From positions 1,568,001 to 1,632,000 of the forward strand of contig OZ245020.1 in assembly GCA_965223865.1 (NCBI GenBank): 64,000 nt of DNA, read 5' to 3'. The position numbers and the translations under genes were made by a program. Source of the stretch: Nitrosarchaeum sp. GTDB taxonomy: Archaea > Thermoproteota > Nitrososphaeria > Nitrososphaerales > Nitrosopumilaceae. The notes beneath the pieces were generated by a model. That model did no database searches. It worked only from the letters and a program-made list of their open reading frames with translations, and had not been told where the DNA came from. Positions 1 through 60,638 of this stretch are shown piece after piece; within the stretch, counting starts at the first letter, position 1; every line of letters begins with the position of its first letter.

Positions 1-528
1 ATTCTTCTTCCTATAATAACCGGCTTATTTCGTGATTTTTCATGAAAATGTACAAAATTAAAAATTTCAGAATATTTTACATCCAGAATGACATACTTGT
101 AGGATTTACTTTGATAGCATCCATTTTTGTAACAATTTTGATTTCAAAAAGCAGATTAATGAAAATAAATAGACGGCTGTGAGGTAACAGTCGGGAAAGA
201 AACCTCCAACCTGTCTATTTTCTGTTTTTGTGTTTGAGGATTTTACATAAAAGCAACTCGTAGAAATTATCAGTATTTTATGGGGTTTGTCTCTGGTATC
301 TTCATTGTTTTTTCTTGTCATTGTCGCAATAATTTCCAAACTCCGATTCCACCTACAATAATTGCAAGTCCAATCAAAATCCACATTACTGTCTTATTCC
401 AATTCATGTTGCTTCCAATGTCAACTCCTTTCTTTTCTAGTATGTATCGTCTTAGCTCTTCGTGGAATTTGTCTTCAAACATAAATTCGTTGAAAGGGCG
501 TTACAACATAATCATATGCGCCTTTGCG

Positions 529-543
529 CGCCAGGTAAGCGAT
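529..543. repeat. distal att core (copy of tRNA-Ser 3' end)
   Basis: cgccaggtaagcgat vs cgccaggtaagggat at 60498-60512 (11 bp identical, 14/15 overall); flanked by an imperfect 18-bp inverted repeat, 494-511 / 551-568. Confidence 0.78.
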
Positions 544-801
544 ATAAGGTTTATGTTGTGACGCTCTTGTCACCAATGATTTTAGAAAATCAAAATTGGT
601 TTTCTATGTGTTATAATACAATTACAACTTGAAAAAGTTTTCTAGAGGATTCAAATTTGGCTGGGAGCATGCATGTGATGCATGTATAGAAGTTGGCCGA
701 TTTTGTTCACAGAAATTAGAAAATTCTCATAAACTAACCAAATACTTTTGTCTATTGAACTCATGTAAAATGAAGTGATAAAAATAAACCAGATGTGAGT
801 A

Positions 802-2160: not shown

Positions 2161-2277
2161 GAATTATTCTGACCCGTTACTTTATGGATTTAAAGAAATA
2201 ATAGAATTTCCACAAATGAAATCCAGTCATGGAAAATACAGTCGATCTTATATTGATTTATCACACTTCTAAAGTAA

Positions 2278-3260
2278 TGAAAAAATACGATACTGCCATA
2301 TTCTTTCTTTTAGCTGTTCTGGTACTTTCGATACCAACTAGTTTTGTTTTTGCCAGTGAAGACAATGATGATGACAGGTATGACGATGACCGAGATGATG
2401 ACAGGTATGACGATGACCGAGATGATGACAGGTATGACGATGACCGAGATGATGACAGGTATGACGATGACCGAGATGATGACAGGTATGACGATGACCG
2501 AGATGATGACAGGTATGACGATGACCGAGATGATGACAGGTATGACGATGACCGAGATGATGACAGGTATGACGATGACCGAGATGATGACAGGTATGAC
2601 GATGACCGAGATGATGACAGGTATGACGATGACCGAGATGATGACAGGTATGACGATGACCGAGATGATGACAGAATCAGTGATGGTTCCAAGACATCCG
2701 ATTTCTTCAAAAGAGAAGTAAGAGCTGAAACCCTTGGTTTTCAGACTGAGATAAAAATAGAGATAGAGTTTGTCAGCAATACGACAGATACAAATCAACT
2801 AATTGATCAAATCATTGACAAATTCTCACTTACCAGAGAAGAGGCAGACATGGAACTGAGAATAGAACGTTCTGATGACCAAAGATTAGAAAAAAAATTA
2901 GAAGTTGAAATTGAAAAGAGAGGCAACACATCCAAAGTTGAAGTTGAACTTGAGACAGTAATTGACTCAACTAGCAGAGGAGCAATACTAGATGCTATTG
3001 TAAAAAACAGCCAGCTTACTAGAGAACAAATTAACGAACAACTCCAATTTGATTCTGATGATAATGACAACAATGACTTTTCAAGAAATGAAATGAGAAC
3101 CAATTCAGATTCAACCGAGCTTGAAAAACTAAGACAGGAAAATCAACAACTAAGAGATGAGATTAAGCAACTCAATCAAAAACTAGATGACCTGCAGCAA
3201 ATCATTATGGAACAGATGAAGGTCATAATGGATACTCTCAAAAATCTAAAATCTCAATAA
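2278..3260 (+). CDS. secreted protein with Asp-rich tandem repeat and C-terminal coiled coil
   Basis: Start MKKYD follows TATA near 2249; signal peptide; (DDDRYDDDR)x11; heptad-rich tail. Confidence 0.8.
2367..2674 (+). repeat. 27-bp perfect tandem repeat, 11 copies plus a partial
   Basis: Unit gatgatgacaggtatgacgatgaccga, 2367-2663 = 11 x 27 bp. Confidence 0.97.
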
Positions 3261-4848: not shown

Positions 4849-5376
4849 ATGAGCAGCAAAAAGACATCTAGCATCTCATTTAGAATAGATGAAGAATATG
4901 AAAAAGTGCTAAGAGATATAGCTGAGGAGAACAAAACAAGCCTAAACACTCTTGCAAACCAGATTTTTGGTCAATATGTAGAGTTTGAACTTTATGCCAA
5001 GAAATTTGGTACACTAAGAATGAGCACAGACACCTTTCGTAGAATGCTAAACAGTATAGATGAGAAAAATCTAATTGAGATTGCCACAAGATGTGGAAGT
5101 CAAGAAGTTAAAGAATTCATTTTGTTCAAATGGAAGAGACTTGACTCAAAGACTGTGACTGATTTTATTAAAATCTATTTTGATTTGTGCGGTTATGGAA
5201 GATGTAGTTTAGATAAAACAGAAGGCAATGTCATGTTTAGTGTACATCATGATCTTCAGGAGAAAGGATCCTTGTTTTTAAAACATCTCTTTGAGTCCTT
5301 AATTAGGACAGCACTAGACAAAGATTGCAAAACTGAGATGACTAGTGATACAATAACAGTTAGTTTTCAACCATAA
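4849..5376 (+). CDS. ribbon-helix-helix regulator with C-terminal effector-binding-like domain
   Basis: N-terminal SISFRIDEEYEKVLRDIAEENKTSLNTLANQIF fits the RHH pattern. Confidence 0.8.
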   Translation: MSSKKTSSISFRIDEEYEKVLRDIAEENKTSLNTLANQIFGQYVEFELYAKKFGTLRMSTDTFRRMLNSIDEKNLIEIATRCGSQEVKEFILFKWKRLDSKTVTDFIKIYFDLCGYGRCSLDKTEGNVMFSVHHDLQEKGSLFLKHLFESLIRTALDKDCKTEMTSDTITVSFQP

Positions 5377-5385
5377 TGCTTTGAG

Positions 5386-5404
5386 TGCAATTGACTACAT
5401 TGTA
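5386..5404 (+). promoter_or_regulatory. operator motif 1
   Basis: tgcaattgactacattgta, 10 bp upstream of TTATAT. Confidence 0.7.
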
Positions 5405-5443
5405 AACTGACCTGTTATATCAAATTCTGCCAATATTATACAC

Positions 5444-5617
5444 ATGGCTAGAACATGTAGAGGAGTATGCATTGAATCAAAAGGAATTCCGATGAGTAAT
5501 AGTATCAGATATCAAAATGGGCAAAAACGATGTACTTTTTGCAGTATATTTTTAGAAGTGTCTAGTATTAGATGCCCCTGTTGCAAAGCAATCCTACGCA
5601 CAAAACCTCGTGGGTAA
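5444..5617 (+). CDS. 57-aa Cys-rich microprotein (CxGxC...CxxC...CPCC family)
   Basis: Own translation MARTCRGVCIESK...RCTFC...RCPCCKAILRTKPRG; paralogs at 6070 and 8132; TATA upstream. Confidence 0.85.
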   Translation: MARTCRGVCIESKGIPMSNSIRYQNGQKRCTFCSIFLEVSSIRCPCCKAILRTKPRG

Positions 5618-5649
5618 AATCATGAATTTAGTTGAGGACATGACAAAAA

Positions 5650-5766
5650 ATGGAAAAAATAATCTGCGTCAGTTGCAGAGTCGAAATAATTCAATACTAC
5701 AATCACAATTACAATGGGGAAAGAGGTCTCTGTCCAATTTGTAAGACAGACTTTCCACTAGAATAA
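5650..5766 (+). CDS. 38-aa zinc-ribbon microprotein
   Basis: MEKIICVSC...GLCPICKTDFPLE, two CxxC; GAGG upstream. Confidence 0.65.
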   Translation: MEKIICVSCRVEIIQYYNHNYNGERGLCPICKTDFPLE

Positions 5767-6086: not shown

Positions 6087-6258
6087 AGGTATTTGTGTAC
6101 AGCTAAAAAGTAGCAGTGTAAGCAACGGCCAAAAATATCTAAAAGGACACAAAAGATGCACATATTGCAGTACGTTTTTGATTACCTCTGAGATCAGGTG
6201 CCCATGTTGTAAGACTATTTTGAGAACCAAGTCTCGTCATCGAAAACATTTTTCTTAA
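6070..6258 (+). CDS. 62-aa Cys-rich microprotein (CxGxC...CxxC...CPCC family)
   Basis: MGTSCKGIC...RCTYC...RCPCCKTILRTK. Confidence 0.85.
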   Translation: MGTSCKGICVQLKSSSVSNGQKYLKGHKRCTYCSTFLITSEIRCPCCKTILRTKSRHRKHFS

Positions 6259-6331
6259 AATTTAATTGCAAATAACCACAATGTAATCTTCTTGATTATA
6301 TCTCATTGTTGTAAAGTTAAGTTGAAGAGAA

Positions 6332-9488: not shown

Positions 9489-9599
9489 AGATTAACAGAG
9501 ATGCTGACTGCTATTATACCAAAACACATTTTTCAGAAATAGTTTTCAGGTGTGGAAATCGTATTTCTGTAATATATTCATTTGAAATGTAAGTGAGCC

Positions 9600-13249: not shown

Positions 13250-13526
13250 GAGATCAGTTATGCATTATAATCTAAAAGAAAGCAAGAACAATATCAAAGG
13301 TGAAAATGAACAAGACAAGATACATGAAAAATTATCTCAAATTTATTATTTGCATGCATGTATTTTCTGTAACAAATTATAGATAACCCACAATATTGTT
13401 TTGGGATGATTGCAAAACTGAAATGACTTGTGACACAATTAAGGTTGGTTTTCAGTCACAATTATAATTGCAATTCAACACATTGCAAACGGACCTATTA
13501 TATCAAATTCTGCCAATATCTACTGT

Positions 13527-13696
13527 ATGACCATAATCTGTAAGGGATATGCATTGAATCAAAGGGAATTCCTATGAGTAACAGTAAAAGATATCAAAAT
13601 GGGTAAAGACGATGTACATTTTGTAGTATATTCTTAGTAGCAGGTATTAGATGCCCTTGTTGTAAAGCAATATTGCGAACAAAACCACGCACTTGA
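13527..13696 (+). pseudogene. degraded copy of the 5444-5617 Cys-rich gene
   Basis: Collinear with 5444-5617 but with a 1-nt deletion after codon ~7 and a CAA>TAA change. Confidence 0.82.
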
Positions 13697-16325: not shown

Positions 16326-17773
16326 CTAAAAATCGCAGGGACAAGAGTAGTCATAAGTATCGTCAAAACTACCACCATTATCAGAGTAAGAGGTAACCCC
16401 ACTTTGGCTAGTTGTTTTGTAGTTACATACCCACTCCCTAAAACAACTATGTTTGGAGGAGTACCCACAGGCAGAATAAATCCATAGCTAGTTGCAATGG
16501 CAACTGGAATCATGAATAGTAGTGGGTCCATATTTAATGATGTAGACAATGCAGCAGCTACAGGAATCAAAAGTGCCGCAGTTGCAGTATTGACTACAAA
16601 TTGAGTCGTAATCATAGCAACTACCACCAACACCAGAACTATGACAAAGGGTGGGAAATTTTCAAGAAATTCCAATTGGGTTGCCATCCATTGGTCAACA
16701 CCTGTAGATGTAAATCCAGCTGCTAAAGCAAGACCGCCACCTATCAGTAACAAAACGCCCCATGGAATTTTGATTCCTTCATCCTTTGATAAGATCCTTC
16801 CATTTTCTTTTGAGGGTAAAACAAAAAATGACATTGCAGCAATTATTGCAATTACCGCATCATCTATCATTGGAAGGTACGGCTTCCACAAAATATGAGT
16901 AATCCAAGCAGTTGCAGTAGCTCCAAATACTGCTAGGACTAATTTTTGATCACGTGTAATACTACCTAACTCTTTTAATTTTTTTACAATGACTTCTTTT
17001 TCATCAATAATGTTTGTTGATTTTAGTTTAAAACCAACATTAGTCAAATACCATCCCGCAATAATTAATGAAATTATTGTAACAGGAATTCCAATCATCA
17101 TCCATGATGAAAAATTAATGTCAATCTCAAACATTTTGTCAGCTACAGAAGAACAGATGATGTTTGGTGGAGTTCCAACCAATGTTGCAATTCCTCCTAT
17201 ACTTGCAGCAAATGCAATCGAAATCATCAGGGAACTTCCAAATTTTCCTCGTTCCTCTGGTTGTTTTACCTGGCTAATCACGGCCAAGGCAATCGGCAAT
17301 ATCATCAAAGTTGTTGCAGTATTACAAATCCATGCACTAATTGATGCAGTAACTACCATGAATGCAAAAATAATTAGTTTGGGACTGCCATTGGGAATAA
17401 TCTTTAAAGTTGTCAGAGCAAATCGTTCATGAAGATTGGTTTTCTGAATTGCTTTAGCTAAAATAAAACCTCCCAAAAGCAGGAAAACTAACCGATGAGC
17501 ATAATTTGTGGCAGTATCTGAAAGAGGAGTTACCTGCATTACTGGAAAAAGCACTATGGGCAAAAGTGCTGCAACATAAAGTGGAACTGCCTCTGTGACC
17601 CACCAGGTTGCCATCCAAATGGCAGTTCCCAGGACAATTTGACCTTCAAAAGAAAGTCCCTCTATTGGCAAAAAAATGGTAATTAGGAATAATATGGGTC
17701 CTAAAATCAAACCAATTCTGCTGATCTGATTTCCTGTTTTACCAAGAATTTCAATCGGCCTTTTTTTAAGCAA
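16322..17773 (-). CDS. SLC13/DASS anion:sodium symporter
   Basis: WWVTEAVP, CNTAT, VGTPPN, NTATA, PVGTPPN. Confidence 0.94.
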   Translation of the reverse strand: MLKKRPIEILGKTGNQISRIGLILGPILFLITIFLPIEGLSFEGQIVLGTAIWMATWWVTEAVPLYVAALLPIVLFPVMQVTPLSDTATNYAHRLVFLLLGGFILAKAIQKTNLHERFALTTLKIIPNGSPKLIIFAFMVVTASISAWICNTATTLMILPIALAVISQVKQPEERGKFGSSLMISIAFAASIGGIATLVGTPPNIICSSVADKMFEIDINFSSWMMIGIPVTIISLIIAGWYLTNVGFKLKSTNIIDEKEVIVKKLKELGSITRDQKLVLAVFGATATAWITHILWKPYLPMIDDAVIAIIAAMSFFVLPSKENGRILSKDEGIKIPWGVLLLIGGGLALAAGFTSTGVDQWMATQLEFLENFPPFVIVLVLVVVAMITTQFVVNTATAALLIPVAAALSTSLNMDPLLFMIPVAIATSYGFILPVGTPPNIVVLGSGYVTTKQLAKVGLPLTLIMVVVLTILMTTLVPAIFR

Positions 17774-20219
17774 TTTTTGCCTCCCTGACCTTGCTTGGAG
17801 GAGTCCATCTCTTTAGGAGTAGAGAGCTAGATACAACAGAGACAGAACTTGCAGCCATTGCTAATCCTGCAAGTGCAGGATAGAGCAATCCAATTCCGGC
17901 TACAGGAATCAAAATTGTATTGTAAACAAATGCATAAAACAAATTGTATTTTATTTTGCTGATTGTTTTTTTGCTGATTTCTATTGCAGAAACCACATCT
18001 TTTAGCTCTTCTCTTACAAGAATAATCATTCCAGCTTCCAAAGCAATGTCTGTACCACCTCCAATTGCAATTCCAACATCAGATTGAGTAAGTGCTGGAG
18101 CATCATTGATACCATCCCCAACCATTGCAACAATTTTTCCTTGATCCTGAATTTTTTTTACTTCATCAACTTTTTCTGAGGGAATAACGTTTGCCACAAT
18201 TTTTTCAATACCCAAGTCCTTCCCAATTGTCTTTGCAGTTTTTTCATTATCGCCTGTTAGCATTACAACTTCAATTCCTAACTTTTTTAACAAAGAAACA
18301 GTTTCTTTGGAGTCTCTTTTTGGCATATCTAAAAATGAGATAATACCTATCGGTTTGTTATCCAATGCGATTATTGAAACAGTCTTTCCTTGTTCTTGCA
18401 GTTTGATAACATCTTGCATTGCATTTTTGATTTCAATTTTTTCTTTTTCAAACAACTTTGGATTTCCAACAACAATTGTTTTATTTTCAAAAGTAGCTCT
18501 TACCCCACCTCCTGGAATGGATTCAAATGTGTCAGGATCTTTTACATCAATTTTGTTTTTTATTGCTTGTTTGACTACTGATTTTGATAGAGGATGCTCA
18601 GAATTTTTTTCGGCAATAGCTGCAAATCGTAAAACATCAGATTTTTCAATTGGCACATCTTGTTTCACAGTAAGAATATCTGAAATCTTTGGTTTTCCTT
18701 CTGTCAGAGTTCCTGTTTTATCAAAAACAATTGTCTGAACTTTGCCCAACAATTCAAGTCCTTGACCACCCTTGAAAATTACTCCATTTTGGGCAGCTTT
18801 TCCCATCCCCACCATGACTGCTGTAGGGGTTGCCAACCCCAATGCACATGGACATGCTACCACAAGGATAGCCACAGTAGGAATAATTGCAGCCAATATC
18901 AAGCCAGGAGCTCCAAAGAAATACCATGCAAGAAAAGTAATTATTGCCACGCCTATTACAATGAATGAAAAATATCCTGCAATTTTGTCTACCATCTTTT
19001 GCATTGGAGGTTTTCGGCCCATTGCGTCTTCAACCAATCCAACAACTTGAGAAAGGAACGTGTCACTTCCAACTTTGAGTGTCTTTAACAATAACGAACC
19101 TTCTTTGTTGATAGTTCCCCCAATGACTTTGTCATTGATCTTTTTAGTTACGGGCAAGGACTCGCCAGTTACCATGGATTCATCCACTGCTGAAATTCCT
19201 TCAATTACAATAGAATCTACGGGGATTTTTTCTCCAGGCTTAACAATTACAATATCTCCTTGCTGTAATAGTTCAATGGGAATATCTTCTTCGTTTTCTC
19301 CTCTTTTCACTCTAGCAACCTTTGGTTGAAGCTCTAACATTTTTCGGATAACTGAGGATGCCTTTCCTTTGGTTTTGTTTTCCAGATATTTTCCCAATAA
19401 AATGAATGTGATCACCATGACTGCTGCCATGTAATGAATATTTTCCCATACTGGAATAGGAAATGTGTTGACTGCGCTGAAAACATAAGCAGTTGTTGTT
19501 CCAAGAACAATCAGGGTATCCATGTTTGCTGATTTCATTTTGGCCATCTTGAAGGCACCGACATAAAATCGCCAGCCCATTCCAATCTGAACTACACTTG
19601 CGCATGCAAAAGAAAAGTAGGCTCCCTCAATTGTTCCTGCGTAAGGAAATCCAAGATACATTCTGGAGAGCTCACCTAAGAGTACAACAGGAATTGAAAA
19701 AATCACCCCAATAATAAACAGCCGTTTGATTTTTTTTGCTTCAATCTCTTCAGCAGAAGCTGAGAGATCTTCACTGAGAATTTCAAAACCTGAATCTGTG
19801 ACATATTTTCGAATGTCTGATAATGAAAGCAAGGCGGGATTGTATTCAACACGAATTTGCCCTGTTCCAAAATTTACGGATGAGAATCGTACACCTTCTT
19901 TTTTTGCCAACAAAGTTTCTAACTTTTGAGCATCACTGGCATCAGATATTCCTGATACTACCAACATCAATTTTTCATAAACTACTTTGTATCCTGCATC
20001 AGTAACTGCTTTTTCAAGTATGTCTAGGTTAACTTTAGATGGATCATATTGCATGACGGCTTTTTCAGCACCTAAATTAACATCACATTTTTCTACGCCT
20101 GGAATATTTGAAACATGTTTTTGGATTGCAGAAACACACCCTGCACAGGTCATTCCACCAATTTTTACTACTGCCCTTTTTTGAGACTCTAATTTTGATT
20201 TATTCATTTTATCCACCAT
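17766..20219 (-). CDS. copA: copper-translocating P1B-type ATPase
   Basis: GMTCAGC, TGES, CPC, DKTGT, SEHP, GDGIND, YN, MAASS. Confidence 0.97.
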   Translation of the reverse strand: MVDKMNKSKLESQKRAVVKIGGMTCAGCVSAIQKHVSNIPGVEKCDVNLGAEKAVMQYDPSKVNLDILEKAVTDAGYKVVYEKLMLVVSGISDASDAQKLETLLAKKEGVRFSSVNFGTGQIRVEYNPALLSLSDIRKYVTDSGFEILSEDLSASAEEIEAKKIKRLFIIGVIFSIPVVLLGELSRMYLGFPYAGTIEGAYFSFACASVVQIGMGWRFYVGAFKMAKMKSANMDTLIVLGTTTAYVFSAVNTFPIPVWENIHYMAAVMVITFILLGKYLENKTKGKASSVIRKMLELQPKVARVKRGENEEDIPIELLQQGDIVIVKPGEKIPVDSIVIEGISAVDESMVTGESLPVTKKINDKVIGGTINKEGSLLLKTLKVGSDTFLSQVVGLVEDAMGRKPPMQKMVDKIAGYFSFIVIGVAIITFLAWYFFGAPGLILAAIIPTVAILVVACPCALGLATPTAVMVGMGKAAQNGVIFKGGQGLELLGKVQTIVFDKTGTLTEGKPKISDILTVKQDVPIEKSDVLRFAAIAEKNSEHPLSKSVVKQAIKNKIDVKDPDTFESIPGGGVRATFENKTIVVGNPKLFEKEKIEIKNAMQDVIKLQEQGKTVSIIALDNKPIGIISFLDMPKRDSKETVSLLKKLGIEVVMLTGDNEKTAKTIGKDLGIEKIVANVIPSEKVDEVKKIQDQGKIVAMVGDGINDAPALTQSDVGIAIGGGTDIALEAGMIILVREELKDVVSAIEISKKTISKIKYNLFYAFVYNTILIPVAGIGLLYPALAGLAMAASSVSVVSSSLLLKRWTPPSKVREAKIA

Positions 20220-20588: not shown

Positions 20589-20757
20589 GTTGTAATTGTC
20601 ACATTTCCATAATTAAGGAAGTATCACAATTTCCAATGTTGGTTGTAGTGTTGGTTCATTCGATAAAAGTACCAAAAAGCTAAAGAAGGATTTGTGAGAC
20701 AGCAAGGTCTTAGCTATTTTTTGCTCTAACTTTTTGTTTAATTTTAAAATAATATCG

Positions 20758-30945: not shown

Positions 30946-31647
30946 TTGTTCTTTGTGGAAACAGAACTACGTATCATTTTGCTGATATCAATGTTGGGCA
31001 TTGCAGCAACATTTGATGTAAAGTCAAGAAAGATTCCCGATGCAATATGGCTGGTTTTTGGTGGGATTGGGGCTGTATTGTATATCTGGGACTATGATGA
31101 TGGAATGACCTCATACCATGTCATTACTATTCTTACATCAGTCTTTGCAGGAATGATGTTATGGAAATGGAAAATAGCAGGCTTGGCTGATACGTTTGCT
31201 GTTCTTGCAATGGCCGTAATCCTGCCAGTTCATTACGAATTTGTAATGATGCCAATAATGATTCTGGTAACGGCATTTCTTTTGATGGTGGTTTTTGTTA
31301 CTTTGTACAACGTGTCTCTGAATGTATTTGATATCCTCAGGTCAAGAAAGATGTGTATATTCTCTGAATTTTCAGAACCAAGATACAAAAAGGTTTTTGC
31401 ATTTCTTGTTGTTCACAGAAAAAGAAGATTTGAAAAATTTGTCATTCCAGTGGAGAATTCAATGAGCATAACGCCTTATGTCAAGTCATTTGCGTTTCTA
31501 TTATCTAGAAACAGAGTAAAAAGAGACAGCCAGTTACTGCAATCAAATGGAATGTATGTGCAAAGCATACCACCGCTAACAGTTTACATGTTTGGGGTTG
31601 ATTTGTTTTTGTTGTTACCTGAAATTCTAAGTATCTTGTTTTCTTAA
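30946..31647 (+). CDS. A24 prepilin peptidase (PibD/FlaK-like)
   Basis: ATFDVKSRKIPDAIW and GLAD catalytic Asp motifs; multi-TM. Confidence 0.85.
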   Translation: MFFVETELRIILLISMLGIAATFDVKSRKIPDAIWLVFGGIGAVLYIWDYDDGMTSYHVITILTSVFAGMMLWKWKIAGLADTFAVLAMAVILPVHYEFVMMPIMILVTAFLLMVVFVTLYNVSLNVFDILRSRKMCIFSEFSEPRYKKVFAFLVVHRKRRFEKFVIPVENSMSITPYVKSFAFLLSRNRVKRDSQLLQSNGMYVQSIPPLTVYMFGVDLFLLLPEILSILFS

Positions 31648-32836: not shown

Positions 32837-35800
32837 TTGGGAAACTATTGGTCACTGTCAAACATCCAAAAACCAAGTGGACATCTTGACTCTGTAAGAG
32901 ATTTTTTAGGAATAACAGACAAGTCAAAGATATCATGCTGCCAGGTAATCGTACCCATATCTATTGACGTCAAGCTTGCTATACAGTCAGCTTCTAATAT
33001 TCTGGGATTGCCATCAAAGAACCCATACCACAACACAGTACGCTCCTTTGAGATCTGGTGGAACGGCGCAAAAAAGCAATTAAAGCTAGTTCTGGTATCG
33101 CATTCCCCTGAAGACTTGGAATCATTCAAGACTTCATTCTCACAAATGTATCCCAATACCACATATTCTGACCTGAAAACAATTTCACCGGAATGGTACA
33201 ACATATCAAAAGAATACAAGATATTTGACGTGTCAACTCGCCACGGTCACTACAGTACCCTGTTTGACAGGTCAAATGCCCATAGTACCATCACCAGAGT
33301 TGCAAACACGATACAGCTTGCTAATTTTGCATGGATTCAGTTTGTATTTGCACCATACAATTTTACCCCGTATCTCAAGTCTCACCACAACCAGCTAAAC
33401 CGCAGAATAAAATTTGTTACAAGCAAAAAGTTTCGTAGCTGGATTGATGAGATCAAAGATATCAAGCCATACGAGAATCCGGAAAACGGAATGGACTTTT
33501 ACAACAACTACAAGACTATGCAGTCAGACACTTCACAGAAGATGCAAAAGTCGCATGTCATCATGAGCATCAGAGGATTGTTGTCCTCATCTGAAAATAG
33601 TAATTTAGAATCAATTCCATTTGATGATATAAAGTCAAACTATGAGCATCTAACCTCATACACATACAACTATTCAAAGTTCTGCAACAAAAAACCAAAG
33701 AGAGCTGGCTCTCCAATTACAATATCCGGAGAAAAGAAACATTTTGAACGCCAATCATTATTTGAGTTAAGGCTGATTCCTGCTGCAAAAAAGTCACTTG
33801 AAAATGCAATTAGTGGCTACTTTAATGCGTCAAAACTTACCGGGGATTACAAAATTAGAAAGCCACTACCATTTCTCGTACTGAATAATGACGAGATGTC
33901 TTTGTTTGTGCACCTACCTGATGCAGTAACTACAAAAAACTTGCAGACATCAAGGAATGTCTCATTGCCAACCAAGATAACATCAAAGAAGGGATTCAAT
34001 CTAGGATATTTGCAAGAATCCAAGATTAATTTTAGCCAGTATGGTAAAATTGTAAAATCAACTGACCAACAATGCTCAGTAGTATCGCCTGCAGATTTCT
34101 CGAGGCATGGCTATATCGTGGGTGGAACTGGTTCAGGCAAGACCACACTACTAAGAATAATTGCAAAGCATCTGGAGACATCAAATCTCAATGGAGAGTT
34201 CCCAAACAGTTTCATTTACCTGGATCCAAAAGGTGATGACTCACTCAAGTTCATCGAACAGTGTGGCAAACAATCAATTGAAAACCACAACGTACACTTT
34301 TTGGATCCAATTGAAACTGATTTCTCAATCAATCCATTGGAATTACCAAGGTATTCTCCTGAGAAAAGACAAGAGACAGTGTCCCGATATGTCGGATATT
34401 TCATGGATATTCTAAAGGAGTGGTACAAACAGCAGCAGAGCTTTGTGCAGATGGAGAGAATCTTTCGCGTGTTGCTCTTTTACATGTACCAGAACAATGA
34501 TGCACCAACTTTTTTGGACATGTATGATATCATAATAAACATCCAAGAAGAACAAGAAAAGTTTCTGCAGATAATGTTCAAGGCATTAGGGATGCCAGAT
34601 TCAGAAGCAATGAAGCAAGCTTTGACATCAATTGCAACATTACGTCCTGAATCATTTGTGCCATTGCTAAACAGAGTTGAGCAGTTTGCAACAGACCCAA
34701 TACTAAAAAAGGTGTTTTGTGTCAGACATGGAACCGTAAAGTTTGAAGATTTGATAAAACCAAACCAGTACACAATAGTCAGGATATCATCGCTACACTT
34801 GGCGCACCACATACAACCATTGGCAATCCAAGCTTTTGTCATAAAGTTGTGGTTTACCATACAGGAAAGAGCATCTCACACCACAGAGAATGACAGAAAC
34901 TATGTCATTCTAGCTTTGGATGAGTTCCAGATAGTATCAGATTTGCATGTGTTGCCGATGATACTATCGCAAGCGAGATCATATCGTCTTGGGTTGTTGT
35001 TGGCACACCAGACTACGGCTCAAATTTCAGACTCTTTACTAGAAGAAATAACTGGAAACTGTGGGACTCAGCTAGCCGGAAGAATATCAGGCAAGGATGC
35101 ATCAAAACTTGCAAACATCTGGGATCCTCGATTCTCAAAGGAGATTCAGCAGCAGCTAGCCTCGCAAGAAGACTATCACTGGACCATCAAGATGAGAGCA
35201 GAACCAGGCGAAGAACAGCCCACACCACTCCAGTTCTGGTTGCACAACCCGCCACCAAATCTCAATGAGAATGGGCATTTTCTTGATAATTTTATCTCAA
35301 AGCAAAAGAAACTGTATGGGAATTATGATGGAGATGATGACAAAAAAGAGAGTTCATTTGATGAAGATGACAATTCCTCCATTTTACAGCAAAAACAGAT
35401 TCAAAGAGACAGGTGGATGAGACACATCACAGTTTCACTTCCTGCAAAAGAGCAATGGCAAATAATGGTGGCATTGCACAAAAACAAGAAGAGTCCACTC
35501 CTGCTAACTGAAATCACAGAGCAAGTCAGAGCTGAGACACGTGATGATGTCATATCTATACTAAAGAAGATGATAAAAAATGGAATTGTAGAAAAGGATG
35601 ATTCAACCCGGAATGTAAAATATTTTCTGTCCAAAAAGGCTGTCAAGAACTATTTCACATTTGATGATACTAAAATTGGAACAGCTAAAGACATTTCAAG
35701 AATAACACAAAAGGTCATAAAAAATTATCTGGACAAGGGAGTGTTCATCACCATAGCATCTCAGAATATTGAAAAAGACAAGTATCGCCCTGACCTGATT

Positions 35801-36013
35801 GGATATCATTATGATGAGGAAAAATCAATCAGTATAGAGATAGAGTCGGCAAGTGAATTGACAAGCCATCCAGAACATGTCCGACTCAACATGGAAAAGT
35901 GGAAGGACATGGGATTTGACATGTGTCATTGCTGGTCTGAAAGCAAGAAACTATTGGAGGTTTATGATTACCAGGTAACGGACAAGAAAAATGTCAAGGC
36001 ATTTCTAATTTAA
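32837..36013 (+). CDS. virD4: VirD4/TraG-like coupling ATPase with C-terminal wHTH and PD-(D/E)xK-like domain
   Basis: HGYIVGGTGSGKT, LDPKGD, INPLE, LALDEFQ, SQARSYRLGLLLAHQ; C-terminal RPDL...ISIEIES. Confidence 0.85.
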   Translation: MGNYWSLSNIQKPSGHLDSVRDFLGITDKSKISCCQVIVPISIDVKLAIQSASNILGLPSKNPYHNTVRSFEIWWNGAKKQLKLVLVSHSPEDLESFKTSFSQMYPNTTYSDLKTISPEWYNISKEYKIFDVSTRHGHYSTLFDRSNAHSTITRVANTIQLANFAWIQFVFAPYNFTPYLKSHHNQLNRRIKFVTSKKFRSWIDEIKDIKPYENPENGMDFYNNYKTMQSDTSQKMQKSHVIMSIRGLLSSSENSNLESIPFDDIKSNYEHLTSYTYNYSKFCNKKPKRAGSPITISGEKKHFERQSLFELRLIPAAKKSLENAISGYFNASKLTGDYKIRKPLPFLVLNNDEMSLFVHLPDAVTTKNLQTSRNVSLPTKITSKKGFNLGYLQESKINFSQYGKIVKSTDQQCSVVSPADFSRHGYIVGGTGSGKTTLLRIIAKHLETSNLNGEFPNSFIYLDPKGDDSLKFIEQCGKQSIENHNVHFLDPIETDFSINPLELPRYSPEKRQETVSRYVGYFMDILKEWYKQQQSFVQMERIFRVLLFYMYQNNDAPTFLDMYDIIINIQEEQEKFLQIMFKALGMPDSEAMKQALTSIATLRPESFVPLLNRVEQFATDPILKKVFCVRHGTVKFEDLIKPNQYTIVRISSLHLAHHIQPLAIQAFVIKLWFTIQERASHTTENDRNYVILALDEFQIVSDLHVLPMILSQARSYRLGLLLAHQTTAQISDSLLEEITGNCGTQLAGRISGKDASKLANIWDPRFSKEIQQQLASQEDYHWTIKMRAEPGEEQPTPLQFWLHNPPPNLNENGHFLDNFISKQKKLYGNYDGDDDKKESSFDEDDNSSILQQKQIQRDRWMRHITVSLPAKEQWQIMVALHKNKKSPLLLTEITEQVRAETRDDVISILKKMIKNGIVEKDDSTRNVKYFLSKKAVKNYFTFDDTKIGTAKDISRITQKVIKNYLDKGVFITIASQNIEKDKYRPDLIGYHYDEEKSISIEIESASELTSHPEHVRLNMEKWKDMGFDMCHCWSESKKLLEVYDYQVTDKKNVKAFLI

Positions 36014-45069: not shown

Positions 45070-47025
45070 GTGAAATTAAATCCATTTGCAGACAAACAAT
45101 CTGTCAAGAAAAACTCTGAAAAAAATAATCCAAATAAAAAACAACACATACCATCATCAAAGAAAAAATCATCCCCCCACAAGTTTGCATTCAGTTACAG
45201 CATAATCCCTACAAACTTTATCAATCTGTCAGAAGAGGCCCAGATACAAAGACTTGGACAATTCTTTGACATTCTCAATGTTATTGATGACCGTATCAAA
45301 ATCACAATGTCAAGGAGGATGGTGCCAATTACAGTGGAAGGACAAATTCAGAATATGCCTGTAATGCAGGTGCACCTTGAATCACATACCCCAATTGCCG
45401 ATACCTTGGAGCAAAACAGGCTAGAGTACATCTCAGGTATTACCCCTCCACAATTTCAGATAAAAAAAGAGCATTTCTCCATGATGGAACTTGTTGAGAT
45501 GATTCCAGATGAGACAAACAGTGATGACGACAATGCCAACACTGGAGAGAAAATATTCTCAAGAACATTTACGCTTGATGGAATCCCTGCTACTCTGCCT
45601 TATGCATGGATAACCAAAGTCTTTGACATCTGCTCTCAGATACAAATGTGGTACAATCCGCTTGACAAAGACGAGGCAATAATCAGGATGGTCCGATTCA
45701 AAAACATCATCTATGACGATGCAAAATCCAACAGGGCAACATCGGAGTTATTCAAGAGAGCAGATAATGCTGAAAACTCTTTGAGAAAAGACACAACACG
45801 ACTCTATGAGGTTATCGTAAACTGCACTGTAATTGGACAAGACAGGAAATCACTCAAGGAAAACTGCAAGACATTCAAGAAACACCTCAAGAGGTATGGC
45901 GGGCATTTTAGTGCAATTTCTGCCAAACAAGCAAGCATGCTGTATGAAGGATTTGGAAAAAAGATAACTTTTGACCGTGGCTCCTGTGCAATCTTGTATT
46001 CGTTTGCATCAGCTGACATGCTAGAGATTCCTGATGGCATCCCATTGGGAATCAACATGGACTCCAAGGGTCCGATAATATTTGACATTGGAAAACGCAC
46101 CAACTACAACATTGCAGTGATTGGCAAGTCAGGTTCAGGAAAGTCATTTACTGTCAAGATTTTGCTGAATCGTTTGTTGCAAAGGTTTCCTGATTCACAT
46201 GTTTATGTGATAGACCCAATGGGGGAATACTCCAAGATTGCTGACTTTTTTGGAATGGATGTACTGTATCTCAAGGATGAAAAAGATCAGCTTGGTTTGG
46301 ATCCGTTTGTTTTGCTGGAACCATTGGATGCAGCAGACATCTTATCTGAGATTACAAACGCGCCTGATGATGTAAAGAGACAGTTCCAGACATACTGTGG
46401 AAAGGCCAGAACCTTTGAGGAATTCTTTGAAATGATTCCAAAAAAATACAAGGACAGCCTTATCAATCTGAAGAAAGGTCCACTGTCTAGAATAATTCTG
46501 GGCAAACCAAAACTAAACTCTCAGAAAAAAGTGATAATGTCAATGGAAGGGGCAACAGGATCTGAGACAGAACAGATGATTTTGTTGTTACTGTTAAACA
46601 AAATATTCAAGATTTGCAACGACTTGCCTGCAAGGACAAGAAAGATTGTCTTGATAGATGAGGCCTGGATGCTGCTGCGAATGAGGAATGCTGCAAAGTA
46701 TGTCAACATGATTGTTCGCATGGGACGGAAACTGAACATCACCTTTGGATTCATCTCCCAAAGACTGGAGGACATCTCAAAGGAAGATGACTCTGGAATT
46801 GGCAAAATCATTGACAACATGGAGACCAAAATCATCTTGGGTCTAGAGGAACAAGCAGCAGAGACTGCAAGAAATGTCTTGAGATTGTCTGATTCTGAGA
46901 CAAACAAAATCCGTGCATTTAATGCAGGACATGCGTTGTTTCTCACAAAGAACCATAGGATTCACGCAAAGTTTATGCCAACGACACAGGAAAAAGAGAT
47001 GTTTGATACAAGACCGTTGGAATAG
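45070..47025 (+). CDS. virB4: VirB4-like type IV secretion ATPase
   Basis: NYNIAVIGKSGSGKSFTVK, VIDPMGEY, LIDEAW, RMGRK...ISQ. Confidence 0.93.
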   Translation: MKLNPFADKQSVKKNSEKNNPNKKQHIPSSKKKSSPHKFAFSYSIIPTNFINLSEEAQIQRLGQFFDILNVIDDRIKITMSRRMVPITVEGQIQNMPVMQVHLESHTPIADTLEQNRLEYISGITPPQFQIKKEHFSMMELVEMIPDETNSDDDNANTGEKIFSRTFTLDGIPATLPYAWITKVFDICSQIQMWYNPLDKDEAIIRMVRFKNIIYDDAKSNRATSELFKRADNAENSLRKDTTRLYEVIVNCTVIGQDRKSLKENCKTFKKHLKRYGGHFSAISAKQASMLYEGFGKKITFDRGSCAILYSFASADMLEIPDGIPLGINMDSKGPIIFDIGKRTNYNIAVIGKSGSGKSFTVKILLNRLLQRFPDSHVYVIDPMGEYSKIADFFGMDVLYLKDEKDQLGLDPFVLLEPLDAADILSEITNAPDDVKRQFQTYCGKARTFEEFFEMIPKKYKDSLINLKKGPLSRIILGKPKLNSQKKVIMSMEGATGSETEQMILLLLLNKIFKICNDLPARTRKIVLIDEAWMLLRMRNAAKYVNMIVRMGRKLNITFGFISQRLEDISKEDDSGIGKIIDNMETKIILGLEEQAAETARNVLRLSDSETNKIRAFNAGHALFLTKNHRIHAKFMPTTQEKEMFDTRPLE

Positions 47026-47200: not shown

Positions 47201-50200
47201 TTGATTGTGAAGGTTTTAGAACTTTTAGAAGAGGAACTTCCAAAGTATATTGAAGAAGTAAAACTAAAACATTCTGAAAATGCCAAAGCAGTTGCATTTT
47301 CATCTTTCATTCAGAAAGTTTTTGATATTGAGTCTAAAGATCTAGATTTTGAAGTTCCAATTAAAACTGAAGTATTAGAAATGAGAGGTAGAATTGATGC
47401 AGTATTTGGAAATTTAATAATTGAATTTAAGAAAGATTTGTTAAAAAGCCTGGAAGAAGCAAAAGATGAATTAGAAAAATATTTTCAAGCGTTTAAAGAA
47501 AGATATTCAGATGCAAATTATCTTGGAATAGCTAACGATGGTATTAGATTTCAAGTATACCAACCGATTTTTGAAGATAAAAAAATTAAAGAAATTGAGA
47601 AAATTGATGAAATAAATTTAGAAAACAGTTCACCTAGAGATGTTTTTTTATGGTTCGATTCTTATTTTTTTACTTCTGAAAAAATAATTCCTACTTCAGA
47701 TGATCTAAAAAAAAGATTCGGATTAGATAGTCCTACATTTTCAGCAATGAGAAGACAGTTAGAAGAATTATTTAACAAAGTTTTCGAATACAGACCTGTT
47801 AAAGTAAAGTATGATAGTTGGGCTCGTTATTTAGAAATTGTTTATGGAGACAAACCAAATGAGAAAAAACTTTTTTTCAAACATACTTATCTCTCAACAT
47901 TTGTGAAATTACTTGTTCATATTAAATTAACAAAAAATTCTCAAAGGCAAAATCACTCAATTGTGCCTATTCTTTTTGGAGATACATTTACTCAATATGG
48001 AATTAATAATTTTCTCGAGGAAGATTTTTTTACTTGGATAATGTTTGTGACTATTCGTAAACAAGCAAGTAAGATTTTTGAAAAATTACTTGACGAGCTT
48101 TATGTTTATGATTTAGACAAGATTGATGAGGATGTTTTAAAAGAACTTTATCAAGAGTTGGTTGATCCCGATGTAAGAAAGCTTTTGGGTGAATTTTACA
48201 CGCCTGATTGGCTTGCGGAGAAAATGATCGATGAATCTCTGCAAAAAAATCCTTTGTCAAGTGTAATGGATCCTTCATGTGGTTCAGGGACTTTTTTGTT
48301 TAAAACCATTAGATACAAAATAGATAGACTAAAAAAAGATAGATTATCCAATTCTGAAATTCTTAATCACATAGTTGAAAATGTGATTGGTTTTGACGTA
48401 CATCCATTAGCAGCTATTATTTCAAAAACTAATTATCTTCTAGCACTTCGTGATTTGTTATCTTCAAAAACAGGCTCCATAAGCATACCTGTTTTCTTAA
48501 GCGATTCTCTCAAGGTTCCAACTAAAAAAATGGATGTTGCACTGGGCGTTACATTATTCGAATATACTGCTTTAGATAAAAAATTTGTATTTCCAGTAGA
48601 TATTGCAAAAAATATGCAAAAAATGGATCAGGTGATTGATAGCTTACGAACTCATGGAATAGAATTTGAAAAAATCTATGATAGAAAATATGAATCTAGT
48701 TATGTAGACAATACTGTAATAGATGGAGCTTATGAAAATCTTGTCCAAAGTTTTAAGCGATCATTAGTGAAGGTTGTTAGTAAATCAGAATTAATAATTT
48801 TGGAACAAAATGTAAAAACTTTATTCGATCTTATAAAAGAAGAATCAAATTCAATTTGGACTTATGTTCTTCGAAATATGTACAAACCTATTGCAGTGTC
48901 TTATCGAAAGGTTGATCTCTTAATTGGAAATCCTCCATGGTTAGGATTAAACAATATGAAAAATGAGGAATATCAAGACTACCTAAGAGAACGTAGTAAA
49001 CATTATCTACTTACAGAAAAGAGAAAAAGTCAAAATATTTCTAACTTGAATCTTGCTACATTATTTTTTGTTCAATGTGTAGATCAATATTTGGATAATA
49101 AAGGAAAAATATCTTTTGTGATGCCTCAAGGAATTCTTTTTGCATCACAACATGCTAATTTTTTGAAATTTGAAAAAATTCCTATAAAATTAACTCAAAT
49201 TTATGATTTAGAAAAAGTTACTCCTCTTTTTAGAATATTATCATGCGTAATTTTTGGTACAAAAGGTTCAACAACGGAATATCCAATAACATCTTATGAT
49301 GTGAGCGGCAATTTACCGTCAAACAATTCCAATTTAGAAACAGCAAAGTCAGTATTAACATTCAAAAAACTAGAATATTCTCCTGTAGAAAGAAAGGAAG
49401 AAAAATCATTTTATTATGATAGATTTTCTCAAGGCGCCCAAATTATTCCTAGATGTTTCTGGTTTGTAGATCTCTTAAGTGATAGTTTTCTTGGTTTTAA
49501 CCCCGAAAAACCTCTTGTTGAATCATCTGAAAATAAAGATGCTAAGCATCCTTGGGATAAAATTAGGCTCAAAGGTAATGTGGAAAAACAATTTCTTTCT
49601 ACGTCAATTTTAAGTAAAGACGTTGTTCCATTTGGAAATCTACCTCGAAGAGTAATTGTTGTACCATTACTTATGGATGAACACAATGTCAAATTACTTG
49701 ATAATTCGCAACAAATTGAAATTAGTGGATTATCAATTTCAAAATATTTAGAAGATGCAGAAAAAAAATGGGAGAAAAATGCACCCGTAAAATCCAGAAA
49801 AAATATGACCATTTATGATAGAATTGATTATCAAAAAGATCTTTCTTCACAAAATCCTTTTCAGGGATACACGGTACTTTATGTGAAATCAGCAACTTAT
49901 CTTGCTAGTTGTGTTATAGAAAATAATGAAATCAGTTTAATCCCAGTTGGTGAAAATAGTTTAAAGATTAAAGGTTTTTTTGCTGAAGGAACAACATATT
50001 TCTTTACAACTGATTCTAAAGAGGAGGCATACTATCTTTGTTCTATTTTTAATTCAAAAACCCTAGACGAAAAAATTAAACCATTTCAAAGTAGAGGTAT
50101 GTTTGGCGGAGCAAGAGATATTCATAAGTTGCCTCTTTCATTTAATATCCTTAAATACGATTCTTCAAATAAAATCCACAAATTGCTGTCTGACGAAGGA

Positions 50201-50341
50201 ATAAAATGTGCAAAAACTGTTAAACAAAATCTTTCTGGTTTATCAACAAAATCATCTGGTCAATTAAGAAAAAAAATTCGAACAATGCTTGAAAAAGAAT
50301 TAGACATAATAAATGAAAAATCGAAACAGCTATTAAAATAA
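47201..50341 (+). CDS. Type IIG-like restriction-modification enzyme (nuclease + amino-methyltransferase + TRD)
   Basis: GRIDA....IIEFK nuclease motif; LGEFYTP, DPSCGSGTF, GNPPW. Confidence 0.92.
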   Translation: MIVKVLELLEEELPKYIEEVKLKHSENAKAVAFSSFIQKVFDIESKDLDFEVPIKTEVLEMRGRIDAVFGNLIIEFKKDLLKSLEEAKDELEKYFQAFKERYSDANYLGIANDGIRFQVYQPIFEDKKIKEIEKIDEINLENSSPRDVFLWFDSYFFTSEKIIPTSDDLKKRFGLDSPTFSAMRRQLEELFNKVFEYRPVKVKYDSWARYLEIVYGDKPNEKKLFFKHTYLSTFVKLLVHIKLTKNSQRQNHSIVPILFGDTFTQYGINNFLEEDFFTWIMFVTIRKQASKIFEKLLDELYVYDLDKIDEDVLKELYQELVDPDVRKLLGEFYTPDWLAEKMIDESLQKNPLSSVMDPSCGSGTFLFKTIRYKIDRLKKDRLSNSEILNHIVENVIGFDVHPLAAIISKTNYLLALRDLLSSKTGSISIPVFLSDSLKVPTKKMDVALGVTLFEYTALDKKFVFPVDIAKNMQKMDQVIDSLRTHGIEFEKIYDRKYESSYVDNTVIDGAYENLVQSFKRSLVKVVSKSELIILEQNVKTLFDLIKEESNSIWTYVLRNMYKPIAVSYRKVDLLIGNPPWLGLNNMKNEEYQDYLRERSKHYLLTEKRKSQNISNLNLATLFFVQCVDQYLDNKGKISFVMPQGILFASQHANFLKFEKIPIKLTQIYDLEKVTPLFRILSCVIFGTKGSTTEYPITSYDVSGNLPSNNSNLETAKSVLTFKKLEYSPVERKEEKSFYYDRFSQGAQIIPRCFWFVDLLSDSFLGFNPEKPLVESSENKDAKHPWDKIRLKGNVEKQFLSTSILSKDVVPFGNLPRRVIVVPLLMDEHNVKLLDNSQQIEISGLSISKYLEDAEKKWEKNAPVKSRKNMTIYDRIDYQKDLSSQNPFQGYTVLYVKSATYLASCVIENNEISLIPVGENSLKIKGFFAEGTTYFFTTDSKEEAYYLCSIFNSKTLDEKIKPFQSRGMFGGARDIHKLPLSFNILKYDSSNKIHKLLSDEGIKCAKTVKQNLSGLSTKSSGQLRKKIRTMLEKELDIINEKSKQLLK

Positions 50342-58161: not shown

Positions 58162-58944
58162 TTAATTATTTTTCTTTTGTTCTCTTTCCCATTGTTTCAT
58201 GGTCTTTTTGTACTCTTTAGAATCATAGTGTCTACCTGCATTGGCTCTCAAGACATTCAATGGGGTTTTCACCAAACCTATCATAAATTCACAAGCAAAC
58301 AGATATTCTTGTTCAGTAAGATATCTTCCCAATACACTAATCCATGCTTCAGATCCAGAAGTATACAAAAATGCATTTTCTTGATTTTTAGGTTTTAGAG
58401 TTCCTTTAACAATCTCTTTGGTTAGCATTACATCAAATAATGTTGGAAGGGCAAACCAGGTTGGTTTATTTTTATCATTTTTTTGTAAAATAGAGGGCAG
58501 CCCATATCTAAACTGAATTTTTTCATCTTCAACAACAATCCCAACATTTGAGATATTTTCTGTTTCATATTTTACTTGAATTTCTCTAGTTCTGGAATTT
58601 TCTAACTGGAAGAAATAATCGTTTAATGTAACCCATGCATTTCTTTTCTCATCATACCATGCATCATTCCAAATGTGTTCATCCGGAATATTTTGAGGTA
58701 TGTTTAGATGTCTAAAATATTCCGTATTTTTCGAATAATCTATTGCCGTTATAAGTTCTGAAATGTTTGATTTTGTTTTCGATATTTTTTCTAGTGTTTG
58801 TAATATTTCTTGTTGTTTTCCCGTACTTTCATCAAAATTATTTTCTAGTTGTACCAATGTCTTTTGATTTTCTTTTAACATTTTCTTCAAAAACGGAATC
58901 TGAACTCCTTTTGGGAATTTTTGATTATTTTGTGAAAGCATCAA
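58162..58944 (-). CDS. hypothetical protein with N-terminal coiled coil
   Basis: 260-aa ORF; CTTTTTATGCAAAC promoter upstream. Confidence 0.72.
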   Translation of the reverse strand: MMLSQNNQKFPKGVQIPFLKKMLKENQKTLVQLENNFDESTGKQQEILQTLEKISKTKSNISELITAIDYSKNTEYFRHLNIPQNIPDEHIWNDAWYDEKRNAWVTLNDYFFQLENSRTREIQVKYETENISNVGIVVEDEKIQFRYGLPSILQKNDKNKPTWFALPTLFDVMLTKEIVKGTLKPKNQENAFLYTSGSEAWISVLGRYLTEQEYLFACEFMIGLVKTPLNVLRANAGRHYDSKEYKKTMKQWEREQKKNN

Positions 58945-59159
58945 TTAGAATAACCCTCGTTTGCATAAAAAGACTGGGATTCTTTTGAATGTGAACCACA
59001 GTGTTTGGCAAGAATTGTGCTTAAATTAAATTGAGCATTTACCAACATGGAAGAGATAATCCACATTCCAAAAAACAAATTGCTTGAATTAAAAAAATCA
59101 GTGGACCAATACAGAAATGAAATAAAAAAGATAAGATCAGACATTGCACAATGAGTCCT

Positions 59160-60488
59160 TTAGTTATCAGTCCTTTGCTTGAGCAATTCCTCAAATATCA
59201 AATCAATCTTGTCTCCAAGTTTTTCCACATTCTCCAGTCTATGTACAATAGAATCCATAGTGTGCTGTTGGGATACGGTAGTCTTTTCTAACAGTTTTGC
59301 ATCAAGAATATAACCGCATTTTGCACACCTCTGTCTTTCAGGGGTGTTATCGTGCTCACAACGTGGGCATTTTTTTAGCTGGGCAATGGCATTAGAGTTG
59401 TCTTTTTGCTTTATTCCGTGAAGCTCCAAAATTGCGTTTTCTGCATCCTTGCCAGAAAGATGCACGTATCTTGCAGTCATCTTTGATCCTGGTTTCCAAT
59501 TGCCGTACACACGCAGCGTCTGATCAGAGAGTTTTTTTGCCAAGTGTGTAAGTTGAGAGTGCCTCATCAGATAGTTCCAGACTCGTTTTTTTATTCCCGC
59601 TTTTTCCTTGCATCTTTTGAGATGCTCTCGTAGATAACCATAAGATACACGCTTTGTTTTTGAGGACTTCCATAAGGAATACCATAACGGTGCATTAGGG
59701 TCATCTTTTAGTGGGTGCTCATCAAGCCACTCCAAGAGAGGCTTGAATGACACTACCAGTGCAACACTTTTGCTTCCAGTCTTGCCAAATGTACTGACCA
59801 TGACATGGTCATCCCTAAAGTCAATGCCACCAACTCGCAAATGCAACAGCTCTCCTGGACGAAATGCCCCTTCAAACAATACCCAAAACATGGCCCTGTC
59901 TCGCTTGTTTGTAGTCTGGTTGATTATTGCATTTAGTTCATCAAGGGTAAGCAGATCTTTTGGCTGTATTCCTTGTTTGTTTTTGTCCTGATATCTTGAA
60001 GGAGAGATCCACTCAACCTCGTTTACGTATCCTCTCTTCTTGTCCCCAATGTCTCCAGTCTTTGCAAAGTGGACCAATCTCTGTAAGGTCAATGCATATG
60101 CAGACTTTGTCTCACCGGAATAGTTTTTTTGAGATATTAGATTAGAGAGTATGGACTCGCATTGGATTTTTTTGGCGTTTTTTAGCTTGAGGTGCAGTTT
60201 TTCAAATTCTGCAAGTATCAATGGGAGTCGATCGCCGTAATAGCAGAGGCGTGCATCAGATAATCCTACTAGTTTTAGTTTGTCAAGGAATTGGATACAT
60301 TTTTGTCCTTCATGCATCTTGGCAAAACGATTTTTTGCCCATCTTATCTTTCTTGGATAGTTGTAGATATCACCAGAATCATCATAACCCAGAGTCTTCT
60401 TGTCATTGCCAGCATCGCTTTTTACCACATGAACAGATGTCTGGTTTTCATTTAAGGCAGGATTTTTGTCAGAAGGGAGCAACAACAT
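59160..60488 (-). CDS. tyrosine integrase with C-terminal zinc ribbon
   Basis: AFRPGE, GKTG, YLMRHS, GNW, TARYVH; CPRC...CAKC; adjacent to tRNA. Confidence 0.95.
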   Translation of the reverse strand: MLLLPSDKNPALNENQTSVHVVKSDAGNDKKTLGYDDSGDIYNYPRKIRWAKNRFAKMHEGQKCIQFLDKLKLVGLSDARLCYYGDRLPLILAEFEKLHLKLKNAKKIQCESILSNLISQKNYSGETKSAYALTLQRLVHFAKTGDIGDKKRGYVNEVEWISPSRYQDKNKQGIQPKDLLTLDELNAIINQTTNKRDRAMFWVLFEGAFRPGELLHLRVGGIDFRDDHVMVSTFGKTGSKSVALVVSFKPLLEWLDEHPLKDDPNAPLWYSLWKSSKTKRVSYGYLREHLKRCKEKAGIKKRVWNYLMRHSQLTHLAKKLSDQTLRVYGNWKPGSKMTARYVHLSGKDAENAILELHGIKQKDNSNAIAQLKKCPRCEHDNTPERQRCAKCGYILDAKLLEKTTVSQQHTMDSIVHRLENVEKLGDKIDLIFEELLKQRTDN

Positions 60489-60497
60489 AATAGTATA

Positions 60498-60579: not shown

Positions 60580-60638
60580 ATTTAATCTGAGATTATCTCC
60601 ATAATAAAGCAAATCAGAACTCGAGAAAATACCAAAAA

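Follow-up and report, generated by a model that had tools for sequence, protein, structure and literature searches.

The integrase gene of an integrative-conjugative element in Nitrosarchaeum probably has its own conserved promoter, with at most an auxiliary role for a box in the far attachment arm

Comparative analysis leads us to a view of the integrase gene (int) of a ~60-kb archaeal element as probably self-sufficient: int would be transcribed from a conserved TTAAAT promoter of its own and translated from a leaderless GTG start, and a promoter-like box in the far attachment arm would be at most auxiliary. We hold this reading with some confidence and with appreciable doubt. The element lies in the window, by which we mean the whole stretch of 64,000 nucleotides of Nitrosarchaeum sp. 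DNA that was analysed; G000 denotes this genome, and G004 a sister genome with an 88% identical integrase and the same tRNA. On the favored reading, positions 540–560 would be the core-proximal part of a ~105-nt P arm, on the attR side of an element inserted in the 3' end of tRNA-Ser(CGA). int would not depend on this far arm, its leaderless mRNA starting at GTG 60428 under the control of a BRE/TATA box, TTAAAT, that, lying inside the P' arm, would accompany the gene whether the element is integrated or excised. The upstream ATG at 60488 would belong to a conserved inverted repeat around the crossover core, a probable integrase-binding site, and TTATAT in the P arm would contribute no more than a further transcript made only in the circle, in the manner of Pcirc, which lies upstream of Pint in ICEclc. 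A sequence-only reading had proposed that excision assembles a TATA promoter for int and so acts as an on/off switch; if int has its own promoter when integrated, such a switch is not needed.

The two ends of the element carry direct copies of an 11-bp core, CGCCAGGTAAG, which is complementary to the final 11 nt of the tRNA. Exactly two copies occur within the 64-kb window, a number reached in none of 100 shuffles, and when the core is extended into the tRNA, 14 of 15 bases match. The integrase reading frame beside attL is intact and has a Phage_integrase domain (Pfam PF00589, residues 180–345, scoring 58.7 bits where the cut-off is 27.1, E = 8e-16); with direct repeats that match the tRNA 3' end, this is the arrangement of a tRNA-targeting, non-split integrase. 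Further Pfam matches comprise a VirD4/TraG-like ATPase (32837–36013; TraG-D_C, TrwB and DUF87), a VirB4-like ATPase (45070–47025; AAA_10, TraG P-loop and DUF87), a DNA methylase (47201–50341), a weakly matching prepilin peptidase (30946–31647) and, as cargo, a heavy-metal P-type ATPase (17766–20219). Neither a TFIIB homologue nor a ParB-like gene was found by Pfam among the 71 ORFs scanned at E ≤ 0.001. With a VirB4/TrbE and VirD4/TraG pair inside it, the pair by which thaumarchaeal ICEs are recognized, this ~60-kb element belongs with the integrative-conjugative elements that have been surveyed in Thaumarchaeota.

Metagenome contigs from four runs, mapped on 58500–62500, place the same boundary in other strains, which leave the window exactly at 60498. 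Loose contig ends fall, among those listed, at 60498, 60445 and 60513, with a G004-like variant from 60445; over the same interval, the contigs of the four runs contained no circle junction of type A and no joints either. The tRNA flanks in three other genomes (G003, G005 and G006) are not simply alignable with the DNA left of the window, a comparison complicated by many short repeated gene families, and no syntenic counterpart of the G004 attR flank was found in G000. Because empty-site synteny gave no simple alignment, the element boundaries rest on the core repeats, on arm homology and on the break at 60498. The features of the element are collected in Table 1.

Table 1. Features of the integrated element and of its attachment sites (positions in the window)
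Feature	Position	Strand	Basis or remark
Integrated ~60-kb integrative-conjugative element (ICE 'A')	529–60508	-	two direct 11-bp core copies
Core copy, far end (attR)	529–539
Core copy at attL, last 11 nt of the tRNA	60498–60508
tRNA-Ser(CGA), integration target	60497–60580	-
P arm of the att site, ~105 nt	540–644	-	homology to second G000 copy and to G004 far end
P' arm, int leader region	60429–60497	-	non-coding in relatives
Left arm of 9-bp inverted repeat flanking the core	551–559
Right arm of 9-bp inverted repeat	60482–60490		contains ATG 60488–60486
TTATAT, BRE/TATA-like site	542–547	-	enriched hexamer and matrix score
TTAAAT, probable int promoter box	60450–60455	-	matrix score 9.0 and conservation
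GTG, probable int start codon	60426–60428	-	ATG in G004 and 5 metagenome variants
Tyrosine integrase gene	59160–60428	-	PF00589; 422 codons from GTG, 442 from ATG 60488

Several repeats were observed in passing. Eleven head-to-tail copies with a 27-nt period occupy 2304–2728, inside a 343-codon ORF (2229–3260, plus strand) without a Pfam match, in which they would encode a nine-residue protein repeat. Two segments of ~300 nt (5323–5689 and 13408–13689) are 82–88% identical, with weaker copies at 5847 and 6191–6317, and look like a small duplicated gene family in the cargo region of the element. In the left flank, the stretch 162–323 recurs in the genome, with overlapping parts at four other places at 79–91% identity.

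At the tRNA site, element A stands in a tandem array whose further part covers G000:C1:1557987-1568539 (L026 1987-12539; window 1–539). At 10.5 kb to the left of position 529 is a third copy of the core; before it stands the 105-nt P arm again, at 98% identity, and after it come a P' arm and a 5' fragment, ~450 nt long, of another, third integrase. In the sense of the tRNA, the order is tRNA, core, element A, core, 10.5-kb remnant, core and 5' integrase fragment; the remnant opens with a decayed int-start motif (window 507–528) and closes in an A-type P arm. The last junction of the array is a fossil circle-type junction preserved in the chromosome, where TTATAT precedes the decayed gene's ATG by 28 nt.

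Other insertions were seen elsewhere. The same genome holds a second integrated element of ~47 kb (G000:C1:1856198-1903352), with a paralogous, 58% identical integrase and lying between direct repeats of 20 bp that copy the 3' end of another tRNA, as well as a broken integrase beside an intron-containing tRNA (C1:865708-866674). In genome G133, tRNA-Ser(TGA) is present on two contigs (L065 = C35 and L066 = C86), with an integrase arm after one copy and unrelated sequence after the other, which suggests occupied and empty sites in one population.

Comparative evidence for the favored reading comes from the conserved geometry between the tRNA and the integrase homology. Our search covered 301 family genomes, 73 of which had integrase homologues; 30 loci were retrieved, and boxes and frames were counted on 29 (including L036, L037 and L047 from unpublished genomes, the first two of which are also among the 14 of the 30 loci where ARAGORN placed a co-oriented tRNA upstream). 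At 13 of these 14 loci, an in-frame start lies 67–73 nt past the tRNA end, the sole exception having its start at 210 nt. The codon 68 nt after the tRNA is GTG here and ATG in G004, and ATG stands at the same position in all five metagenome contigs with enough sequence on this arm. A TATA-like hexamer begins 25–28 nt before an in-frame start that lies immediately upstream of the protein homology (25–31 nt were searched) in 21 of the 29 loci, or in 19 of 26 when the three unpublished ones are set aside. TTAAAT is the hexamer in 17 of the 21 box-bearing loci, and GTG or TTG serves as the start in five of them. (Ranking the loci by the 'best box' of an 18-nt matrix was discarded as noisy, with flanking positions dominating, and the hexamer-set count was used instead.) In this genome the first base of TTAAAT is 27 nt before GTG 60428, and its score is reached by 0.027% of positions. 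The hexamer is invariant in elements G000-A and G000-C, in G004 and in five metagenome contigs. Judged by motif and conservation only (score 9.0; TTAAAT in 17 of 29 loci), the int-proximal region would not be one with a weak or absent promoter.

The stretch upstream of this start behaves as non-coding DNA would. The int frame is closed at most 42 nt upstream of the homology in 15 of the 29 loci, so that an extension back to a tRNA-proximal ATG is impossible there, and distant protein matches all begin at query residues 22–40 or later. From the tRNA to the start, the DNA is homologous to that of distant loci, in the order tRNA end, TTATAC-like motif, TTATGA, GAACAAAATTT, CCTTAAAT, ~21 nt and start. 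G000 and G004 share 36 identical nt that end in TTAAATGAAAA; of the 16 nt from there to the start, 10 are different, and every change would be non-synonymous in a coding reading, which is the pattern of a promoter-to-start spacer and not of codons. In the decayed third copy (C), the supposed N-terminal codons have four non-synonymous changes and one synonymous change. int thus most likely starts at GTG 60428 with its own conserved, predicted promoter. The sequence-only reading had taken int to start at 60488 and to lack a promoter when integrated, a premise that the conserved start and the TTAAAT box undercut.

Judged by the spacing of promoter motifs, leaderless GTG starts are normal in this genome. 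As a background we took 736 upstream regions of long ATG-started ORFs, in which A/T-only hexamers peak at −29/−28 before the ATG (~22% of genes against a background of ~10%), in keeping with the earlier statement that the spacing seen at the junction is typical of leaderless genes here. TTATAT is the most enriched hexamer at −31 to −26 (19 observed against 1.8 expected), followed by TTAAAT (35 against 5.1) and TTTTAT (30 against 6.7). The 18-nt BRE/TATA weight matrix, with the core consensus CC-TTWWAT, was refined on only 76 sites. Of 261 GTG codons upstream of the first ATG, 55 (21%) have a TATA-like hexamer at −30 to −27, close to the 187 of 1,051 (18%) for ATG codons, with control codons at 3–6%; TTG codons upstream of the first ATG have a promoter hexamer in 77 of 754 cases, a weaker signal than that of GTG. 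Leaderless non-ATG starts seem, on these counts, to be common genome-wide. ORF callers that favor the first ATG would misplace starts in this genome, and for int the corrected start means that an ORF finder would err by 60 nt in the upstream direction.

The junction geometry described by the sequence-only reading is itself accurate. The ATG at 60488–60486 lies 9 nt from the tRNA 3' end, with the discriminator at 60498; in the integrated state the TATA position falls in the tRNA T-loop and reads TCGAAT; and joining the ends through one core puts the first base of TTATAT, which lies 2 nt from the core, 28 nt before this ATG. Both promoters offered for comparison are also in place (ATATAT at 9572–9577 before ATG 9600, and TTAATT at 20611–20616 before ATG 20588). 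On the matrix, the junction site scores 5.64, a level that ~0.2% of genome positions reach, and is outscored by the TTAAAT site at 9.0. By motif and spacing, the junction hexamer is a real and respectable promoter look-alike at the right distance. TTATAT is composed of the TT of a conserved P-arm motif, AAACCTT, and a drifted copy of the tRNA T-loop. We also considered the plus-strand reading of 542–547, ATATAA, and rejected it: among plus-strand ORFs of 70 codons or more, the first to start does so at 911, and this ORF (911–1171) is overlapped by a longer minus-strand ORF.

The expectation that homologous elements would share this geometry holds for G004, which has a W-only hexamer at the same offset, and fails in more distant relatives. 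P arm and core together are matched over 116 nt at 98% identity by the second copy in this genome (G000:C1:1557987-1558102), and over 118 nt at 74% identity by the far end of the 76-kb G004 element, with no similarity beyond these stretches; the G004 hexamer is TTTTAT, with a matrix score of 10.3. The far arm of G007 has no box at the position of TTATAT, that of G146 reads TTATCT (score 0.6), that of G229 has TTTTAT displaced 5 nt further out (1.0–1.7) and the metagenome junction L108 scores −11.7 at the box position. Two unpublished genomes (G095 and G110) add nothing beyond G146 and were not relied on. In the second G000 element, AAACCTT directly abuts a perfect 20-bp tRNA copy, and no site scores above 3. 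Judged from these arms, the putative far-arm box is not a family feature.

Candidate P arms were chosen by eye through a GGCGTTGAC-like motif. The conserved distal block of the P arm was found in genome contigs only in G004 and in none of the metagenome contigs, the viral contigs searched gave no further P arms and the tRNA-Ser(TGA) 12-mer is not repeated in four of five genomes. Across 401 family genomes, the core pattern gave 42 matches in 35 genomes; most single matches are due to chance, because many genomes were matched by the reversed pattern, used as a control, as well. L028 (G004:C1:1364701) and L108 have P arms of another, second type, marked by a GTAGGGCGT-AACC motif, which connect via the same core to differing P' arms; several element families seem to use one tRNA site and to form hybrid junctions there.

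The ATG at 60488 does lie inside an arm repeat, as had been claimed: it is included in a perfect 9-bp inverted repeat whose arms flank the core. An inverted repeat of this length was reached in 18 of 5,000 shuffles and in 52 of 5,000 random genomic windows. The cores of G004 (12 of 15 positions), G007 (12 bp) and G146 (~22 bp) likewise stand between inverted repeats, which are probably integrase-binding sites. In distant homologues the counterpart of the right arm is the TTATGA motif found after the tRNA, which is out of the int frame there, and the region of this repeat is non-coding in most relatives. Autoregulation of int, acting at the internal promoter, is plausible because the right arm of the repeat sits just upstream of the TTAAAT box.

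Some observations count against the favored reading: TTATAT is the most enriched hexamer at its position, its G004 counterpart has a very high matrix score, G000 has GTG and not ATG at the conserved start and the far-arm box falls exactly 28 nt before an in-frame ATG, with the frame open in G000-A, G000-C, G004 and five metagenome variants. We entertain an arrangement of two promoters of the ICEclc type as a tentative possibility: int would have its own TTAAAT box, and an outward-facing BRE/TATA at 542–547 would also fire, being placed 60 nt upstream in the circle (or a tandem junction) alone. From there it would start a transcript at or next to ATG 60488 and supply extra int mRNA, possibly for a leaderless Int of 442 residues, 20 of them added at the N terminus, and favor re-integration. 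The quality and spacing of the junction site speak for it, as do the hexamer kept in G004 with its high score (10.3), the in-frame ATG and open frame kept in eight related sequences and the precedents excerpted from work on bacteria (Pcirc of ICEclc, PMC5812530; ICEKp1 and ICEEc1, PMC13023037). However, the box is missing from distant P arms and from the second element of the same genome, the inverted repeat holds the ATG in place at the DNA level, the 20 codons bear no sign of purifying selection and G000 and G004 share ancestry, so they amount to one observation. We find it doubtful that, in this lineage of elements, excision or tandem integration provides a complete BRE/TATA 28 nt before an otherwise promoter-less in-frame AUG and hence, in the circle, a leaderless mRNA for an Int longer by 20 residues, with the shorter GUG form made from the integrated copy; if true, this would be an archaeal leaderless-mRNA version of the Pcirc/Pint pair of ICEclc and would yield a state-specific integrase isoform.

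Very improbable, in our assessment, is the strict switch, in which int starts at ATG 60488, is promoter-less or served by tRNA read-through only when integrated, and is turned on by TTATAT. That ATG is the first of the open frame, attL has TCGAAT at the TATA position and the 69 nt between the tRNA and GTG 60428 contain no run of five or more T, so read-through is conceivable. Yet downstream there are both a strong TTAAAT box and a start, each of them conserved; leaderless GTG starts appear usual here; and excision could not be promoted by an integrase silent in the integrated state, unless read-through from the tRNA supplied it. The sequence-only reading had named a downstream start with an internal promoter as the finding that would speak against it, and the comparative evidence, as distinct from transcript data, points to just that.

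Taken as a self-sufficient int, the system offers a testable anatomy for one widespread family of ammonia-oxidizer elements, with an 11–20-bp tRNA-derived core, flanking inverted repeats, a ~105-nt P arm and, inside the P' arm, a conserved predicted TTAAAT promoter with leaderless ATG, GTG or TTG starts. If the far-arm box were active, the bacterial principle of promoter switching would extend to archaea, which is a minority reading as it stands. In the literature, a change of promoter on excision is established in bacteria, and we found no archaeal case; our search for integrase control in archaeal conjugative elements returned only a thaumarchaeal survey and the haloarchaeal virus SNJ2.

Circles of IS911, IS30 and similar elements create a new transcription unit for the recombinase when their ends are joined, with a promoter built from two halves. 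Unlike in those circles, the whole BRE/TATA lies in one arm here, and only its distance to the start codon is created. According to the excerpted text of the survey by Krupovic et al. 2019 (PMC6563490), thaumarchaeal ICEs integrate into the 3' part of tRNA genes, are bounded by direct repeats, encode an intact tyrosine integrase and carry VirB4, VirD4, a prepilin-peptidase-like gene and metal or metabolic cargo, with a TFIIB-ParB pair also reported. The present element resembles them in its size, near the reported median of 64 kb, and in forming arrays where one site is used repeatedly. The anatomy of the att arms, the predicted TTAAAT int promoter and the inverted repeats described here go beyond that excerpt, and the word 'promoter' does not appear in the paper. 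SNJ2 also has an archaeal tyrosine integrase with a tRNA target and its own mapped BRE/TATA promoters upstream of the int operon; it differs in being a virus, in its integrase family and in the co-transcription of int with two small genes, and the part of that paper used here describes no role for the circle junction (PMC5861418).

The closest parallels are bacterial. In the excerpts used here, Pcirc of ICEclc faces outwards and is fused upstream of a weaker Pint in the circle (PMC5812530), and for ICEKp1, ICEEc1 and ICEclc, tRNA read-through is described in the integrated state and a promoter at the 3' end after excision (PMC13023037). As in these three elements, int here adjoins a co-oriented tRNA, and a promoter-like site at the far end faces outwards and would come to lie upstream after circularization; as with Pint of ICEclc, int has a proximal promoter, predicted here from its motif. 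The bacterial promoters are of the sigma-70 type and were demonstrated by reporter assays and 5'-RACE, whereas ours are archaeal BRE/TATA-like motifs predicted from sequence. The balance also differs: according to the same excerpts, the 5' flank of int is weak in ICEclc, ICEKp1 and ICEEc1, whereas of the two promoters here, the proximal one seems the stronger.
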